Virus record (IMG/VR): IMGVR_UViG_2713896899_000008 | From: a virus | Taxonomy: Duplodnaviria; Heunggongvirae; Uroviricota; Caudoviricetes | Direction: 5' to 3' (one strand) | DNA: 6,453 bases | Part shown: piece by piece, positions 1,283 through 5,703 of the stretch | Layout of the letters: each line of letters begins with the position of its first letter | How positions within the stretch are numbered: position 1 is the first letter of the stretch | Notes under the pieces: model-generated | Told to the model about the DNA's origin: nothing | Database searches by the model: none | What the model saw: only the letters and a program-made list of their open reading frames with translations | Made by a program: the position numbers and the translations under genes

Positions 1283-1404
1283 GGTATTAAAAAACGCTCC
1301 GCACACATAAGTTGGGCGCCTGAGATGCGGGGATAGGGAGTTGGTTAAATAGTTATACAACAATACCTGATTTTGCATTGAAGCAAGGAGGAGGTTGCCA
1401 CATA

Positions 1405-1533
1405 TTGAATCATGCACGTGTACGTCAAATGTGGGAGGTCATCGTGCTGGTTCTGAAATGTGCGCTGGCTATTGCGGCTGTAATGGCAATTTATTGTCTT
1501 GTTATTGTTCTTATGGAGCACCTTTCTGATTGA
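1405..1533 (+). CDS. Candidate small single-pass membrane peptide (42 aa from TTG 1405; 34 aa from ATG 1429)
   Basis: Strong SD AAGGAGGAGG (1385-1394), then in-frame TTG 1405 and ATG 1429, stop TGA 1531-1533. Product (MNHARVRQ)MWEVIVLVLKCALAIAAVMAIYCLVIVLMEHLSD has a basic N-terminus and one hydrophobic helix. T is regular at codon position 2. An overlapping frame is also open, so coding status is unproven. Confidence 0.3.
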   Translation: MNHARVRQMWEVIVLVLKCALAIAAVMAIYCLVIVLMEHLSD

Positions 1534-1557
1534 TTTCATATTGGCGAGGTGACGGGA

Positions 1558-1587
1558 GTTAAGTAGAATTGCTGTGGGTGCTTGAGG
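1558..1587 (+). promoter_or_regulatory. hok mRNA 5' element complementary to the 3' end (tac-like)
   Basis: GTTAAGT (1558-1564) and GGGTGCTTGAGG (1576-1587) are antiparallel-complementary to ACTTAAC (1965-1971) and CCTCAACGCACCC (1950-1962, one bulged C), which sit just 5' of the hok terminator. Confidence 0.4.
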
Positions 1588-1744
1588 CTATCTGTCTCAG
1601 GCATGAACACCAACGGCAGATAGAGAAAAGCCCCAGTTAACATTACGCGTCCTGCAGGACGCTTAACATTAATCTGAGGCCAATTTCATGCTAGACACAT
1701 GTAGGTTAGCCTCTTACGTGCCGAAAGGCAAGGAGAAGCAGGCT

Positions 1745-1900
1745 ATGAAGCAGCAAAAGGCGATGTTAATCGCCCTGATCGTCATCTGTTTAACCGTCAT
1801 AGTGACGGCACTGGTAACGAGGAAAGACCTCTGCGAGGTACGAATCCGAACCGACCAGACGGAGGTCGCTGTCTTCACAGCTTATGAACCTGAGGAGTAA
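1745..1900 (+). CDS. hok: Hok/Gef-family type I toxin (51 aa), HokD/RelF-like
   Basis: Product MKQQKAMLIALIVICLTVIVTALVTRKDLCEVRIRTDQTEVAVFTAYEPEE matches the Hok family hallmark (N-terminal TM helix, conserved Cys, C-terminal periplasmic tail) and is near-identical to E. coli HokD as I recall it. SD AAGGAG (1730-1735) at 9-nt spacing. Confidence 0.9.
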   Translation: MKQQKAMLIALIVICLTVIVTALVTRKDLCEVRIRTDQTEVAVFTAYEPEE

Positions 1901-1949
1901 GAGACCAGGCGAGGGAGAAATCCCTCGCCACCTCTGATGAGTCAGGCAT

Positions 1950-1971
1950 CCTCAACGCACCCGCACTTAAC
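1950..1971 (+). promoter_or_regulatory. hok mRNA 3' fold-back element (fbi-like), partner of 1558-1587
   Basis: See the 1558-1587 feature. Position immediately upstream of the terminator hairpin matches the hok-family mRNA architecture. Confidence 0.4.
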
Positions 1972-1995
1972 CCGCTCCGGCGGGTTTTGTTTTTT
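1971..1995 (+). terminator. Rho-independent terminator of the hok transcript
   Basis: Stem CCCGC (1971-1975) / GCGGG (1980-1984) with loop TCCG, followed by TTTTGTTTTTT (1985-1995). A 9-bp GAAA-loop hairpin lies upstream at 1908-1929. Confidence 0.75.
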
Positions 1996-2067
1996 CCTGG
2001 CATTCTGGTTTACAATTCGCACGCCAGCCTGAACAACTGGCACCTGCTGCGCCAGCAGAGACAGCCG

Positions 2068-2346
2068 ATGGCGCACGATACCAAATTACACAATTCTGAT
2101 GATTCTGCCGTCTTTGCCAGCAGGTGTGGACGGCGTTTTCACGCATTCAAATCGGACTGGTTCCAGCATCCCCCATGCACTGAAGAGCAGGCTGAATGGA
2201 TAATTCAGTGTTACCGCAGGCGCGGATACGAGGTTAAGAAAGCCCTTAGTCTCGACTACCGTCACTGGATAATCTCAGTCAGATTGCCTTACTCCGAACG
2301 CCCACCACGTGCGTCCCGCACTTTCCAGCAACGGATCTGGAGGTAA
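2068..2346 (+). CDS. Hypothetical small protein (92 aa), at the position rem occupies between hokD and ydfU in Qin
   Basis: First ATG in the open frame is 2068. The ORF-track start at 1987 is a TTG inside the terminator T-tract. Stop TAA 2344-2346 lies inside the SD spacer of the next gene. SD for 2068 is weak. Confidence 0.4.
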   Translation: MAHDTKLHNSDDSAVFASRCGRRFHAFKSDWFQHPPCTEEQAEWIIQCYRRRGYEVKKALSLDYRHWIISVRLPYSERPPRASRTFQQRIWR

Positions 2347-2347
2347 C

Positions 2348-3403
2348 GTGCGGGTATTACTTAGACCTGTTCTGGTGCCTGAGCTTGGGCTGGTGGTCCT
2401 TAAGCCGGGCCGTGAATCCATACAGATATTTCATAATCCTCGAGTGCTGGTGGAACCGGAACCAAAAAGCATGCGTAATCTGCCATCCGGAGTCGTTCCT
2501 GCCGTTGGCCAGCCGCTGGCGGAAGACAAAACATTGCCGCCGTTTTTTAGTAACGAACGGGTGATTCGTGCTGCTGGCGGCGTTGGCGCATTGTCTGACT
2601 GGCTATTACGTCATGTTACATCCTGCCAGTGGCCTAATGGCGATTACCATCACACTGAAACAGTCATTCACCGTTATGGTACCGGCGCAATGGTGTTGTG
2701 CTGGCACTGCGACAACCAACTGCGTGACCAGACATCGGAATCACTGGAGCTGCTTGCTCAACAAAATCTGACAGCATGGGTGATTGACGTCATCCGTCAC
2801 GCAATAAGCGGTACGCAGGAGCGGGAATTATCTTTGGCTGAATTATCCTGGTGGGCGCTCTGCAATCAGGTGGCGGATGCGCTACCTGAGTCAGTATTAC
2901 GTCGTTCGCTGGGGTTGCGTGCGGAAAAAATCCGCTCAGTGTACCGTGAAAGCGACATCGTACCGGGAGAGCAGACCGCCACCAGCATACTGAAGCAGCG
3001 CACAAAAAATCTTGCGCCGCTGCCTCACGCCCACCAGCAAAACCCGCCACAGGAAAAGACGGTGGTCAGCATTGCCGTTGATCCGGAGTCACCGGCTCAG
3101 TATCTCCAGCGCCAGAAACCACAACGGGAAGAGATGCCTGTATACACGCGCTGGGTAAAAACGCAGAAATGCATGACGTGCGGTAATCAGGCGGATGATC
3201 CGCATCACATCATTGGTCATGGACTGGGAGGAATGGGAACAAAGGCTGATGATTTGTTTGTTATTCCGCTGTGTCGCAAATGCCATAACGAACTACACGC
3301 CGGAGTAAAAGATTTTGAAGACAAACACGGCAGCCAGTTGTTGTTGCTGATTCGTTTTTTAATGCACGCGAGAAATTCGGGCGTCCTGAAGTGGAAAGCA
3401 TAA
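2348..3403 (+). CDS. DUF968-family protein (YdfU-like) with C-terminal HNH-like zinc-binding nuclease motif
   Basis: GTG 2348 preceded by GGAGG (2339-2343). C-terminus CMTCGNQADDPHHIIGHG...CRKCHNELH has the CxxC...HH...CxxCH spacing of an HNH-type motif. Start is less certain: in-frame GTG 2309 and ATG 2471 are alternatives. Confidence 0.65.
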   Translation: MRVLLRPVLVPELGLVVLKPGRESIQIFHNPRVLVEPEPKSMRNLPSGVVPAVGQPLAEDKTLPPFFSNERVIRAAGGVGALSDWLLRHVTSCQWPNGDYHHTETVIHRYGTGAMVLCWHCDNQLRDQTSESLELLAQQNLTAWVIDVIRHAISGTQERELSLAELSWWALCNQVADALPESVLRRSLGLRAEKIRSVYRESDIVPGEQTATSILKQRTKNLAPLPHAHQQNPPQEKTVVSIAVDPESPAQYLQRQKPQREEMPVYTRWVKTQKCMTCGNQADDPHHIIGHGLGGMGTKADDLFVIPLCRKCHNELHAGVKDFEDKHGSQLLLLIRFLMHARNSGVLKWKA

Positions 3404-3769
3404 ATGACTGAACATATAGAATTTGTTTTGCCTTACCCGCCGTCGGTGAACACCTACTGGCGCCGTCGTGGTGGCGTATATTTTGTATCAAAAGCCGGTG
3501 AGTGTTATCGCCGGGATGTGGCGCTTATTGTTCGCCAGAAGCGACTGAAATTAAATCTGTCCGGTAGGTTGGCAATCAGGATTATTGCAGAGCCACCGGA
3601 TAAGCGCCGCCGCGACCTGGACAATATCCTGAAAGCACCACTGGATGCGCTGACGCATGCCGGACTTCTTATAGACGACGAGCAGTTTGATGAAATCAAT
3701 ATTGTGCGCGGTCAGCTCGTTCCTGGTGGGCGGCTGGGGATAAAAATCACAGAACTGGAGTGCGCATGA
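3404..3769 (+). CDS. rusA: RusA-family Holliday junction resolvase (121 aa)
   Basis: ATG 3404 directly abuts the upstream stop (TAA 3401-3403). Product carries the RusA signature PPDKRRRDLDNILKAPLDALT and a C-terminal GGRL motif, closely paralleling E. coli RusA. Confidence 0.88.
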   Translation: MTEHIEFVLPYPPSVNTYWRRRGGVYFVSKAGECYRRDVALIVRQKRLKLNLSGRLAIRIIAEPPDKRRRDLDNILKAPLDALTHAGLLIDDEQFDEINIVRGQLVPGGRLGIKITELECA

Positions 3770-4455
3770 ATAGCCAGTATTTACAGTTTGTGCGTGAGCA
3801 GCTCATTATCGCCACCGCTGATTTGAGTGGGGCAACAAAAGGTCAGCTTGAAGCCTGGCAGGAGAATGCCATGTTCGATACAGGGCGTTACAGGCGTAAA
3901 AAAATCCGGTACCGGGATGAGGTGACTGGAAAAATGATAACGCGGGATAATCCACCAATCCCGGGAAAACAATCACTGGCGAAGGGGACGTCAATTCCTC
4001 TGGTCAGTCCGGTTGAGTTTTCGACATCATCGTGGCGGCGGGCTGTTCTGTCTCTTGAAGAACATCATAAAGCCTGGTTGTTGTGGTGTTACAGCGGGAA
4101 TATTTGTTGGGAATATCAGATCGCGATAACACAGTGGGCGTGGAATGAATTTAATACTCAATCCGGTACCAGAAAAATTGCAGGGAAAACGCAGGAACGC
4201 CTGAAAAAATTAATCTGGCTGGCGGCGCAGGCAGTAAAAGCAGAACTTTTTGGTGGGGAAGGTTATGAATACCAGGAGCTGGCATTACTGGCGGGAGTGA
4301 CAACTAAAAACTGGTCCAAAACATTTACTCGTCACTGGGTTGCAATGAAACACATTTTTTACCGACTGGATAGTGAGGCTTTATTGTTTGTAATGAGAAC
4401 ACGTTCAAAACAAAAGGTGGCATTTTCAAAGCAAAGTGTTGCAAAAGTAGATTGA
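3766..4455 (+). CDS. Putative late-gene antiterminator Q (QuuQ/phage-82-type, not the lambda zinc-finger type)
   Basis: ATG 3766 overlaps the rusA stop (ATGA). It sits immediately upstream of a promoter-terminator pair and the lysis cassette, the canonical Q position. Assignment is mainly positional; no zinc-finger motif. Confidence 0.55.
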   Translation: MNSQYLQFVREQLIIATADLSGATKGQLEAWQENAMFDTGRYRRKKIRYRDEVTGKMITRDNPPIPGKQSLAKGTSIPLVSPVEFSTSSWRRAVLSLEEHHKAWLLWCYSGNICWEYQIAITQWAWNEFNTQSGTRKIAGKTQERLKKLIWLAAQAVKAELFGGEGYEYQELALLAGVTTKNWSKTFTRHWVAMKHIFYRLDSEALLFVMRTRSKQKVAFSKQSVAKVD

Positions 4456-4467
4456 AAGGCATATATT
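4439..4467 (+). promoter_or_regulatory. PR'-like late promoter (TTGCAA, 17 nt spacer, TATATT)
   Basis: -35 TTGCAA (4439-4444) and -10 TATATT (4462-4467), overlapping the Q stop codon. Predicted start near 4474, about 50-70 nt upstream of the tR'-like terminator. Confidence 0.45.
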
Positions 4468-4521
4468 TCATGCAAATCTGATATTTTGCCGATTTTGTAC
4501 GTGATGGCAAAAGCAAACAAA

Positions 4522-4547
4522 ACCCGCCCACAAGCGGGTTTTTTTTG
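4522..4547 (+). terminator. tR'-like intrinsic terminator
   Basis: Stem ACCCGC (4522-4527) / GCGGGT (4534-4539), loop CCACAA, followed by an 8-T run ending at 4546. Confidence 0.75.
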
Positions 4548-4628
4548 TGCCACTTATCTCGGATAGACATGGTGAATGCGCTGGTGGAGGAAGTAAGGGT
4601 GATTTTTAATCAGGTGATTTTTGAATGC

Positions 4629-4657
4629 TTGCAACATTGATTTCGTAACGTTATTAT
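4629..4657 (+). promoter_or_regulatory. Sigma70-type promoter of the tRNA array (TTGCAA, 17 nt spacer, TATTAT)
   Basis: -35 at 4629-4634 and -10 at 4652-4657; the first tRNA starts at 4667, about 10 nt downstream. Confidence 0.5.
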
Positions 4658-4666
4658 CCTGCACCC

Positions 4667-4742
4667 GGCCCTTTAGCTCAGTGGTGAGAGCGAGCGACTC
4701 ATAATCGCCAGGTCGCTGGTTCAAATCCAGCAAGGGCCACCA
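4667..4742 (+). tRNA. tRNA with CAU anticodon, ileX/ileZ-like (tRNA-Ile2, lysidine type; Met not excluded by anticodon alone)
   Basis: 76 nt cloverleaf: acceptor GGCCCTT/AAGGGCC, D-stem GCTC/GAGC, anticodon loop CTCATAA, T-loop TTCAAAT, A73, encoded CCA. Overall sequence resembles E. coli ileX. Confidence 0.88.
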
Positions 4743-4743
4743 A

Positions 4744-4820
4744 CCGCCACTAGCTCATCAGGAAAGAGCGTCAACCCTTTAAGTTGAGTGTGCGAGGTTC
4801 GAGTCCCCGGTGGCGGTCCA
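4744..4820 (+). tRNA. Atypical tRNA, anticodon loop CCTTTAA (nominal anticodon UUU, Lys)
   Basis: 77 nt cloverleaf: acceptor CCGCCAC/GTGGCGG (C1:G72), D-stem GCTC/GAGC, anticodon stem TCAAC/GTTGA, T-arm CGAGG-TTCGAGT-CCCCG, U73, encoded CCA. C at position 33 and U73 are unusual for a Lys tRNA. Confidence 0.6.
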
Positions 4821-4822
4821 GT

Positions 4823-4898
<76 letters not shown>

Positions 4899-4901
4899 TA
4901 T

Positions 4902-4976
<75 letters not shown>

Positions 4977-5139: not shown

Positions 5140-5703
5140 TTAGTTTTTATTCGCCGTCCATTTACCACAAATTGGTCTGGAGAAGATTGCCAGAATGGCA
5201 ATAAAGGATATTTCAATTGAAACAGACCAGCATATATGTCCAATCAGTTCGCTCCAGAATTCATAGCCGTTTAGATTCCATAGCCACCCTCTTTCATGGC
5301 CGGGAAGATACGCGGGAAATCTGAAGCCCAGCGCGGGTATTAAAATACCATGCATGACTAATGTAATAAGAATTCCATATACAGCCCCATACCACATGCG
5401 GACTCGTGGAATAAAAACAGACAGGTATATGTATACAAAGGCAAAAATGAAACTAAAAAGCCAATGATAGAGCATAACAGCTCCGGGAATTGTTACTCCC
5501 TGGTAAATGTAATCCAGCGAGTGTGAATTTATTCCCAGAAAACCCAACCAGGCGTCGATATTCATTGCTGGTGGAGAAATTTCTCCGGCCATTCTTGGGG
5601 GCATGTTAGCTTCAGTTCCTGATTTCACCAGAGAGCTGATCGCGCCACCGACCAGTGTTGCCCAAAGTATGATTTTTAGATTTACGCTATTCCATTTACA
5701 CAT
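5140..5703 (-). CDS. DUF1440/YagU-family inner membrane protein (187 aa)
   Basis: Minus-strand ATG at 5703-5701 is preceded by GAGG at 6-nt spacing; stop is TAA (complement of 5140-5142). Product shares blocks with E. coli YagU as recalled (VKSGTEANMPPR, MWYG, MHGILIPALG, SELIGHICWSVSIEI). The 280-aa ORF-track version is rejected as an N-terminal extension. Confidence 0.62.
   Translation of the reverse strand: MCKWNSVNLKIILWATLVGGAISSLVKSGTEANMPPRMAGEISPPAMNIDAWLGFLGINSHSLDYIYQGVTIPGAVMLYHWLFSFIFAFVYIYLSVFIPRVRMWYGAVYGILITLVMHGILIPALGFRFPAYLPGHERGWLWNLNGYEFWSELIGHICWSVSIEISFIAILAIFSRPICGKWTANKN

Follow-up and report, generated by a model that had tools for sequence, protein, structure and literature searches.

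The window, a 6,453-nt stretch of caudoviricete DNA (IMG/VR record IMGVR_UViG_2713896899_000008), comes from a lambdoid prophage of Escherichia coli resembling Qin and PPompW, and it includes the end of the delayed-early (nin) operon that lies next to Q. Four genes lie end to end on the plus strand: a small open reading frame (ORF) at positions 2068–2346, a YdfU-family (DUF968) gene at 2348–3403, the gene of the Holliday-junction resolvase RusA at 3404–3769, and the antiterminator gene Q at 3766–4455. These boundaries were read from the sequence and recomputed; the successive junctions measure +1, 0, and −4 nt, and none of the four genes has an internal stop codon. The initial annotation described an unbroken chain of stops and starts (TAA 2344–2346 then GTG 2348, TAA 3401–3403 then ATG 3404, and ATGA 3766–3769), which is borne out by the sequence and by the four identical boundaries (279, 1056, 366, and 690 nt) that PGAP gives in a 96 per cent identical E. 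coli locus. At least 80 per cent of the stretch 1650–4600 is present in 1271 of 5426 complete E. coli genomes, 4782 of which have a homolog of some part of it, and phage records carry genes annotated as ydfU, rusA, and Q. The chain is an ordinary, already annotated end of an early operon, and annotations of its genes exist in thousands of genomes.

An intrinsic-terminator-like hairpin with a T-run (1969–1995, plus strand; a 7-pair stem with 5 GC pairs and the tail TTGTTTTTTC) lies between hokD and the chain and forms the upstream boundary of the latter. The hok/sok toxin–antitoxin system adjoins the chain. Because of this hairpin at its upstream edge, transcription of the chain would have to arrive by read-through from upstream, and a consensus scan found no promoter-like site between the hairpin and position 2068. 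On the other side, consensus scans identified a candidate late promoter (TTGCAA-17-TATATT, 4439–4467) and a strong intrinsic terminator (stem 4519–4542 plus a T-run). The resulting plus-strand element (4439–4548) is probably the expected pR'/tR'-like target of Q, and its placement relative to Q matches the arrangement in lambda.

The small ORF (ATG 2068, TAA 2344–2346, 92 codons) matches phrog_1212, a PHROG without an assigned function, over amino acids 27–92 (1.1e-35); no Pfam or NCBIfam match was found for it, and PGAP, which places its ends identically, labels the product hypothetical. It consists of a conserved 66-aa core, with dN/dS of about 0.07–0.14, preceded by an extension of 26 N-terminal residues under little constraint (0.4–1.4). 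Homologs are present in 21 of 80 species-level loci. We rejected its identification as Rem, since PPompW phages and K-12 have a separate rem further upstream; rem is absent from the window.

The second gene encodes 351 amino acids between GTG 2348 and TAA 3401–3403. Its product belongs to DUF968 (PF06147; 1.3e-63, 214.5 bits versus a Pfam cut-off of 27.8, amino acids 160–343) and matches phrog_96, annotated as ‘HNH endonuclease’, end to end (1e-161). An alternative start at GTG 2309 was rejected, because the MRxLL with which the homologs begin, the strong Shine–Dalgarno sequence (GGAGG, 2339–2343, plus strand, within the 3′ end of the small ORF), and the choice made by PGAP all fall at GTG 2348. 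The gene has a dN/dS of 0.11 overall and 0.03 in its HNH part. Among database proteins, the N-terminal part also occurs joined to a tail-tip, tail-fibre, portal, or Q domain, and the HNH part to pieces of Dam, MT-A70, or DUF977. The partners are neighboring prophage genes, so we regard these architectures as likely deletion chimeras or erroneous gene calls and not as evidence. Fusions of DUF968 to Erf, Rad52, and RusA have been reported (PMC4118853). A literature search turned up neither biochemical nor genetic studies of YdfU.

The closest named relative is YdfU of the K-12 Qin prophage, which likewise belongs to PF06147, has a similar length (349 versus 351 amino acids), and is encoded immediately before Q, downstream of an unannotated 92-codon ORF at a 1-nt junction. 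The two proteins are 96 per cent identical over amino acids 1–225 but only 65 per cent across the HNH portion; a mosaic breakpoint lies close to the linker joining the two domains, and K-12 YdfU has CRKHH where the protein studied here has CRKCH. In Qin, furthermore, no RusA gene separates ydfU from Q, and Q is of a different family.

The last approximately 90 residues of the YdfU-family protein form a predicted nuclease domain, a zinc-stabilized HNH (His-Me finger). Its core (amino acids 275–317; 3170–3298, plus strand) contains the motif C275-M-T-C278 ... H286-H287 ... C309-R-K-C312-H313 ... H317, together with D302; C275, C278, C309, and C312 are the predicted zinc ligands. The initial annotation had attributed the CxxC...HH...CxxCH motif to HNH-type nucleases and had proposed comparing the C-terminus with HNH and NinG profiles. 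The HNH half of that proposal stands: the C-terminal 85 amino acids alone match HNHc_6 (PF16784) above the gathering score (1.8e-8) and, weakly, PF01844 HNH and HNH_5. The HNHc_6 match, at 32.5–34.6 bits versus 26.6, covers only positions 119–184 of the 204 in the model. The NinG half does not stand, as neither the whole protein nor its C-terminal 85 amino acids have a match to Pfam NinG (PF05766). The domain has the beta-beta-alpha-metal fold, and all predicted catalytic and zinc residues are present, although the roles of individual residues (a catalytic His ending strand 1, a polar residue following strand 2, a metal-binding His in the helix, and the zinc Cys) are those that the motif suggests. 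In a 31-sequence alignment, D302 is invariant (31/31), H287 is conserved in 28 sequences, and H313 and H317 in 27 each. The HH dyad is lost in three family members and the zinc cysteines in six, so nuclease activity is not universal in the family.

The N-terminal region (amino acids 1–226; 2348–3025, plus strand) comprises approximately 225 residues, for which structural comparison gave no match and nothing was found in PDB-sequence and Pfam profile searches. It lacks the Orf/NinB-like N-terminal domain of the HNHc_6 (Orf-HNH fusion) proteins of PF16784. A conserved Cys/His cluster (C93, H101, C118, and C121; codons 2624–2713) lies in a predicted beta-hairpin plus helix, and in hhalign the region aligns in register with the family's own HNH profile, but at P = 0.044. 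One speculative reading, to which we give little credence, is that the cluster (C93, C/H101, C118, H/C121, then W-H-x-D-N) is a second, degenerate and non-catalytic His-Me-like zinc module and that the protein as a whole is a dedicated partner of RusA. On this reading, the module may derive from a duplication of the C-terminal HNH, and YdfU-type proteins may be Ref-like, perhaps RecA-guided, D-loop nickases that feed junctions to RusA.

Among characterized proteins, the HNH domain is structurally closest to P1 Ref and YbcO. YbcO (DLP12 and phage 82; DUF1364; PDB 3G27) is nothing more than a nuclease core of 96 amino acids, without the approximately 260-residue N-terminal region and linker of the protein studied here. 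In DLP12, YbcO and rusA overlap by 4 nt. P1 Ref (PDB 3PLW; RecA_dep_nuc) is an HNH nuclease that depends on RecA and cleaves D-loops, and it is not a nin-region gene product; its N-terminus is disordered and basic (PMC4330346), whereas the DUF968 protein has a folded 225-residue region in its place. Despite the high structural similarity to Ref, the protein has no match to RecA_dep_nuc (PF16786), and its relatives have only sub-threshold matches (E 0.02–0.7). PhiNM1 Gp16 and phiETA Orf20 of Staphylococcus aureus (HNHc_6) are RecA-dependent nickases in which an Orf(NinB)-like domain and the HNH are fused; the DUF968 protein resembles PhiNM1 Gp16 in its HNHc_6 match, early-operon location, and two-part architecture with a C-terminal nuclease. 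Both Ref and PhiNM1 Gp16 are RecA-dependent HNH nickases (PMC3973344, PMC12817073). Lambda Rap (NinG; PF05766), a branch-specific endonuclease, shares the His-Me finger superfamily with the DUF968 protein (PMC5714182), the nin-region location between replication genes and Q, and the proposed role, yet there is no profile-level similarity past a CxxCG knuckle: BLASTP against lambda NinG was not significant, and hhalign gave 9.9 per cent probability over 13 columns, confined to that knuckle. The absent profile match and the 13-column alignment rule out membership in the NinG/Rap family.

RusA (121 codons, 3404–3769, with ATG abutting the DUF968 stop and TGA at 3767–3769) matches PF05866 (1.5e-14, 55.1 bits versus 22.8) and PDB 1q8r (E 4.8e-25), is 44 per cent identical to K-12 RusA, and has a dN/dS of 0.15–0.23. 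It retains RRRDLDN and DD; D70, D72, and D91 are presumably its catalytic residues. Q (PF06323 family, 229 amino acids, TGA 4453–4455), which shares the 4-nt ATGA at 3766–3769 with RusA, matches the Phage_antiter_Q profile (1.3e-91, 306.7 bits) and phrog_304, and the candidate late promoter and terminator lie directly downstream. The G+C content of Q is 0.457 versus about 0.52 in the three upstream genes. All four genes of the chain are under purifying selection.

The chain has the geometry of a coupled operon, with stops and starts overlapping or a few nucleotides apart on a single strand. To score the conservation of junctions and gene order, we used 80 species-level loci; the related-locus search used a 14-sequence alignment. 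The DUF968 start overlaps the preceding stop by 4 nt in 46 of these loci, and among the 78 loci where an upstream ORF could be scored, it lies −16 to +2 nt from that stop in 66. Because nearly all junctions in the lambda nin region and DLP12 are overlaps as well (1–34 nt), close spacing is a trait of the operon class rather than of this module. Translational chaining is plausible, though generic. Predicted Shine–Dalgarno/anti-SD duplexes are strongest for DUF968 (−10.6 kcal/mol), followed by Q (−5.9), RusA (−3.3), and the small ORF (−2.9). With its weak Shine–Dalgarno sequence and a start that abuts the preceding stop, RusA probably leans most on ribosome restart.

That DUF968 is an HNH protein with RusA and Q as neighbors, and that it may act like NinG, was already published in 2017: Jablonska et al. 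(PMC5714182) place YdfU/DUF968 in their His-Me finger group 7, which unites DUF968 with DUF1364 and has RusA and Q as neighbors, and a function in recombination resembling that of NinG or Ref was proposed (PMC5714182). Our counts bear on how regular the association is. RusA is found near DUF968 in 59 of the 80 species-level loci: upstream and non-adjacent in 37, upstream and adjacent in 19, downstream in three, and absent from 21. DUF968 followed by RusA occurs in 3/80 loci, and the order DUF968–RusA–Q only in Escherichia and Shigella; the loci differ in both the order and the distance of the genes, and an antirepressor gene often separates nuclease and RusA. In Q-anchored regions, counted after dereplication because most hits of the QuuD-anchored viral scan were identical copies of DLP12, RusA accompanies a YbcO/DUF968-type nuclease in 21 of 23 cases versus three of eight without one (p = 0.006), in samples that are anchored and partly redundant and in which YbcO–RusA may travel as a single inherited block. 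RusA is absent from all 20 dereplicated NinG regions (p about 1e-10), and neither RusA, DUF968, nor YbcO was found in NinG regions (0/80 raw, 0/20 dereplicated). The association of this nuclease type with RusA is statistical, and the pairing is not obligatory.

These results bear on the initial annotation. The pairing of a nuclease with a resolvase survives in that the nuclease type recurs with RusA, though not with DUF968 as a member of the NinG family. The comparison with the position of lambda NinG/Rap fits RusA rather than DUF968: since RusA and NinG are mutually exclusive in our samples, and rap and rusA have been described as alternatives downstream of orf (PMC4118853), RusA is the counterpart of Rap and DUF968 an extra partner. 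Rap thus corresponds to RusA, or to the RusA/nuclease pair, and not to DUF968 alone. Finally, the layout with DUF968 before RusA is uncommon, at 3/80 loci, and K-12 Qin lacks RusA altogether.

The data establish the identities of the genes, the HNH fold with its catalytic and zinc residues, purifying selection, and the statistical link to RusA; we consider it quite likely that these, with a recombination role of the nuclease and RusA, explain the locus. Transcripts would reach the chain by reading through the terminator that follows hokD, and ribosomes ending one gene would restart at the next. The HNH protein would nick or cut branched or D-loop DNA and RusA would resolve four-way junctions, so that the two would jointly do the job of lambda's single Rap/NinG enzyme. 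Q, the last product, would then act on the adjoining downstream promoter and terminator to start late transcription.

It is less probable, but worth weighing, that the nuclease and RusA are no functional pair and represent optional cargo of a mosaic nin region, in which blocks such as YbcO–RusA are co-inherited. The variable position of RusA, the unrelated antirepressor and methylase genes between or beside the two, the RusA-free YdfU of K-12 Qin, and the dominance of DLP12 copies in the QuuD-anchored sample all fit this explanation. Pure linkage, however, does not predict a co-occurrence kept through at least three gene orders and many genera, and the contrast of 21/23 with 3/8 and 0/20, as well as the reported DUF968–RusA fusion proteins (PMC4118853), also argues for a pair. 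A role of the HNH protein mainly as a host-directed or conflict nuclease outside phage recombination (host DNA nicking, growth inhibition, a lysis–lysogeny bias, or exclusion of other elements) seems to us unlikely. The closest characterized relatives do target host DNA, P1 Ref underlying phage-enhanced ciprofloxacin killing (PMC4713147) and PhiNM1 Gp16 nicking DNA, condensing the nucleoid, and inhibiting host growth (PMC12817073), and hok/sok adjoins the gene. Yet within the early operon the gene has a constant location directly ahead of Q, its association is with RusA and not with defence genes, and matches to defence-enzyme folds weigh little because HNH folds are common to many unrelated functions. 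That the DUF968 gene is a decaying prophage remnant without current function, as its many truncated or chimeric database relatives fused to tail, portal, or Q fragments and the cryptic state of K-12 Qin might suggest, is very improbable and largely refuted by its dN/dS values, given also the intact 351-codon frame with every predicted catalytic and zinc residue and the presence of the same gene in inducible phage genomes.

The YdfU-family protein is very common among E. coli prophages, the full module being present in 1271 of 5426 genomes. The data sharpen the idea that a lambdoid phage has one of two sets, Rap by itself or RusA together with an HNH nuclease of the YbcO/YdfU type. If true, this would shed light on the handling of recombination intermediates by temperate phages. 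Should the more speculative reading of the N-terminal zinc module and a dedicated RusA partner also hold, the two-enzyme system would be an evolutionary alternative to the single Rap/NinG enzyme and would account for the occurrence of RusA with YbcO/DUF968 and never with NinG. P1 Ref has been turned into a programmable nickase, and YdfU-type enzymes might follow.

The four-gene chain reads along the plus strand from a small open reading frame (ORF) of 92 codons (ATG 2068 to TAA 2344–2346) into the DUF968 gene (GTG 2348 to TAA 3401–3403; 351 codons; Pfam DUF968, 1.3e-63), preceded by a Shine–Dalgarno GGAGG at 2339–2343, and on through rusA (ATG 3404, abutting the DUF968 stop; 121 codons; Pfam RusA) to Q, which overlaps rusA by 4 nt (ATGA 3766–3769) and ends at 4455 (229 codons; Pfam Phage_antiter_Q). 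Sequence reading and recomputation reproduced every coordinate of the chain in the initial annotation, and in an E. coli chromosome that is 96% identical the NCBI pipeline places the gene boundaries at exactly the same positions. Such tight junctions are not special to this chain but a generic property of these operons, since the lambda nin region and DLP12 (same tight spacing at nearly all junctions) and 80 DUF968 loci from different species share the pattern. In 46 of the 80 loci, the DUF968 start and the stop before it share a 4-nt overlap, and in 66 of the 78 with a scorable upstream ORF the start lies −16 to +2 nt from that stop; the following gene mostly begins 0–21 nt past the DUF968 stop. 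Coupled translation in the chain is plausible, above all for RusA, because its Shine–Dalgarno sequence is weak (−3.3 kcal/mol versus −10.6 for the DUF968 gene).

The DUF968 protein carries the C-terminal motif ascribed to it (C275xxC278 ... H286H287 ... C309xxC312H313 ... H317), and the claim that this part is HNH-like held: taken by themselves, the 85 C-terminal residues hit HNHc_6 (1.8e-8, above the gathering score), with weak matches to canonical HNH (0.007) and HNH_5 (0.011). The same residues do not match NinG. Profile–profile comparison with lambda NinG (Rap) recovers only a 13-column zinc knuckle, and relates the C-terminal part to YbcO, the DUF1364 nuclease of DLP12 (84%, E 7e-6). An AlphaFold model, for which 31 diverse homologues served as the basis, has high confidence (pLDDT 88.1); a Foldseek search returned no significant match. 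The catalytic and zinc residues are complete, and dN/dS in the HNH part (0.03) is the lowest of the module. Based on these profile, model, residue, and dN/dS results, we assign the C-terminal part to the HNH nuclease domains of the YbcO/YdfU subgroup, structurally similar to Ref (the P1 RecA-dependent HNH nuclease) and outside the NinG family.

Residues 1–160 are covered by no Pfam model in a Pfam profile search. They include a near-invariant cluster (C93, 31/31; position 101, C in 18 and H in 12; C118, 31/31; W119; position 121, H in 23 and C in 8; D122) on a predicted beta-hairpin and helix. Two of these positions alternate between Cys and His, which suggests a metal site. In a family alignment (A1), the HH dyad is lost in three full-length members (P0192, P0199, and P0233) and the HNH zinc cysteines in six (P0173, P0187, P0224, P0211, P0230, and P0244). 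All nine sequences retain the C93/C118 cluster, so the N-terminal region may serve a role that does not depend on catalysis.

Identity to ydfU of the K-12 Qin prophage falls stepwise, from about 100% (2308–2847) to 88% (2848–3084) and 47–77% (3085–3403), pointing to mosaic breakpoints inside the DUF968 gene at 2848 and 3085, with a breakpoint near the interdomain linker. It seems that the HNH-coding end was replaced in concert with the genes behind it (rusA present or absent, a different Q family). Qin has the same small ORF and ydfU as the window, but its Q directly follows ydfU without the intervening rusA. The small-ORF homologue in K-12 MG1655 is intact (92 codons), is flanked by rem and ydfU, again with a 1-nt junction (1307–1585, minus strand, of the Qin locus L004; NC_000913.3 about 1644306–1644584), and is unannotated in the reference record. 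Strong purifying selection acts on a 66-codon core of the small ORF, and its 26-codon extension is almost free of constraint; the ORF occurs in 21 of the 80 loci, sometimes ahead of RusA rather than DUF968.

Q belongs to the PF06323 family, for which we found no relative with a solved structure. Its G+C content (0.457, versus 0.51–0.53 in the three preceding genes) fits a separately exchanged cassette. DUF968 genes of other species precede at least four Q families (PF06323, lambda-Q type, QuuD type, and DUF1133); evidently, this junction allows free exchange of Q cassettes.

The window RusA is 44% identical to K-12 RusA, conserves the acidic motifs, and matches solved RusA structures. The initial annotation also proposed that the DUF968 protein occupies the NinG/Rap position and forms a nuclease–resolvase pair with RusA. 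The pairing is frequent, with RusA on the same strand within 4 kb in 59 of 80 species-level loci, but not obligatory. RusA is upstream and non-adjacent in 37 loci (commonly with a Rha/KilAC antirepressor gene between), upstream and adjacent in 19, and downstream and adjacent, as in the window, in 3, all Escherichia or Shigella. The nuclease–RusA association holds across several gene orders. Among 80 contigs anchored on lambda-type NinG, with three Q families downstream, RusA, DUF968, and YbcO each occur in 0, and NinB/Orf occurs in 76; among 80 anchored on QuuD-type Q, RusA occurs in 65, YbcO in 50, DUF968 in 6–7, and NinG in 0. NinG/Rap and RusA thus occur together in 0 of 160 viral contigs (L166–L245 and L086–L165). 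After dereplication, RusA is present in 21/23 regions with a YbcO/DUF968 nuclease versus 3/8 without (P = 0.006), in 20/20 with YbcO, and in 0/20 NinG regions (P about 1e-10), in samples anchored on chosen genes and with statistics that ignore phylogeny. The rap and rusA genes have been described as alternatives downstream of orf, and DUF968–RusA fusion proteins have been reported (PMC4118853). Given the NinG/RusA exclusion, we read RusA, rather than the DUF968 protein, as the counterpart of Rap, and the HNH protein as a frequent, non-obligatory companion of RusA.

The window represents part of a lambdoid prophage. Directly upstream of the chain is a complete hokD/sok type I toxin–antitoxin locus (1576–1900, plus strand; sok RF01794, 115 bits) encoding a 51-aa Hok (1745–1900, plus strand; a longer overlapping mok-like frame starts at 1688), followed by a predicted intrinsic terminator (1969–1986, plus strand); in K-12 and PPompW phages, rem separates hokD from the small ORF, but the window lacks it. 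A promoter-like site and strong terminator are predicted at 4439–4548 (plus strand). Four tRNA genes (4667–4976, plus strand) with their own promoter-like site (4629–4657) separate the Q terminator from the late region: CAU (Met per ARAGORN, Ile per PGAP in a related genome), Lys-UUU, Thr-UGU, and Gly-UCC. The set in related PPompW phages is instead Met, Lys, and Arg. A DUF1440/YagU-like membrane protein gene follows (5140–5982, minus strand); the first ~95 codons of its 280-codon open frame are probably untranslated, because a related genome annotates 187. Lysis genes come next in the best-matching genome. The match of the 59-codon ORF at 112–291 to DUF977 is confined to the C-terminal half (profile positions 75–134), whereas a related genome has a full 140-codon gene; the ORF is probably a fragment left by deletion. 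Of 5426 complete E. coli genomes, 1271 contain at least 80% of the queried 1650–4600 stretch and 4782 contain some part of it; the stretch also occurs in sequenced phages, annotated as ydfU, rusA, and Q. Enterobacterial prophage with the module also turned up in assemblies titled Veillonella parvula (L010), Chryseobacterium sp. (L014), Geobacteraceae (L015), Vagococcus sp. (L063), and Actinomycetes (L068), with MAGs making up three of the five (L010, L015, and L068). These public records appear to be contaminated or mis-binned.

The nuclease–RusA–Q finding itself is already known: DUF968 (YdfU) and DUF1364 (YbcO, PDB 3G27) have been placed in one His-Me finger group, with RusA, Q, and antirepressor genes listed as neighbours and a recombination role proposed, like that of NinG and RecA-dependent nucleases (Jablonska et al. 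2017; PMC5714182), and PHROGs labels the DUF968 family HNH endonuclease. A literature search found no experimental study of YdfU. New from our analysis are the structural match to Ref, the variation in gene order, and the NinG/RusA exclusion figures, as well as the conserved N-terminal Cys/His cluster and the intragenic mosaic breakpoint.
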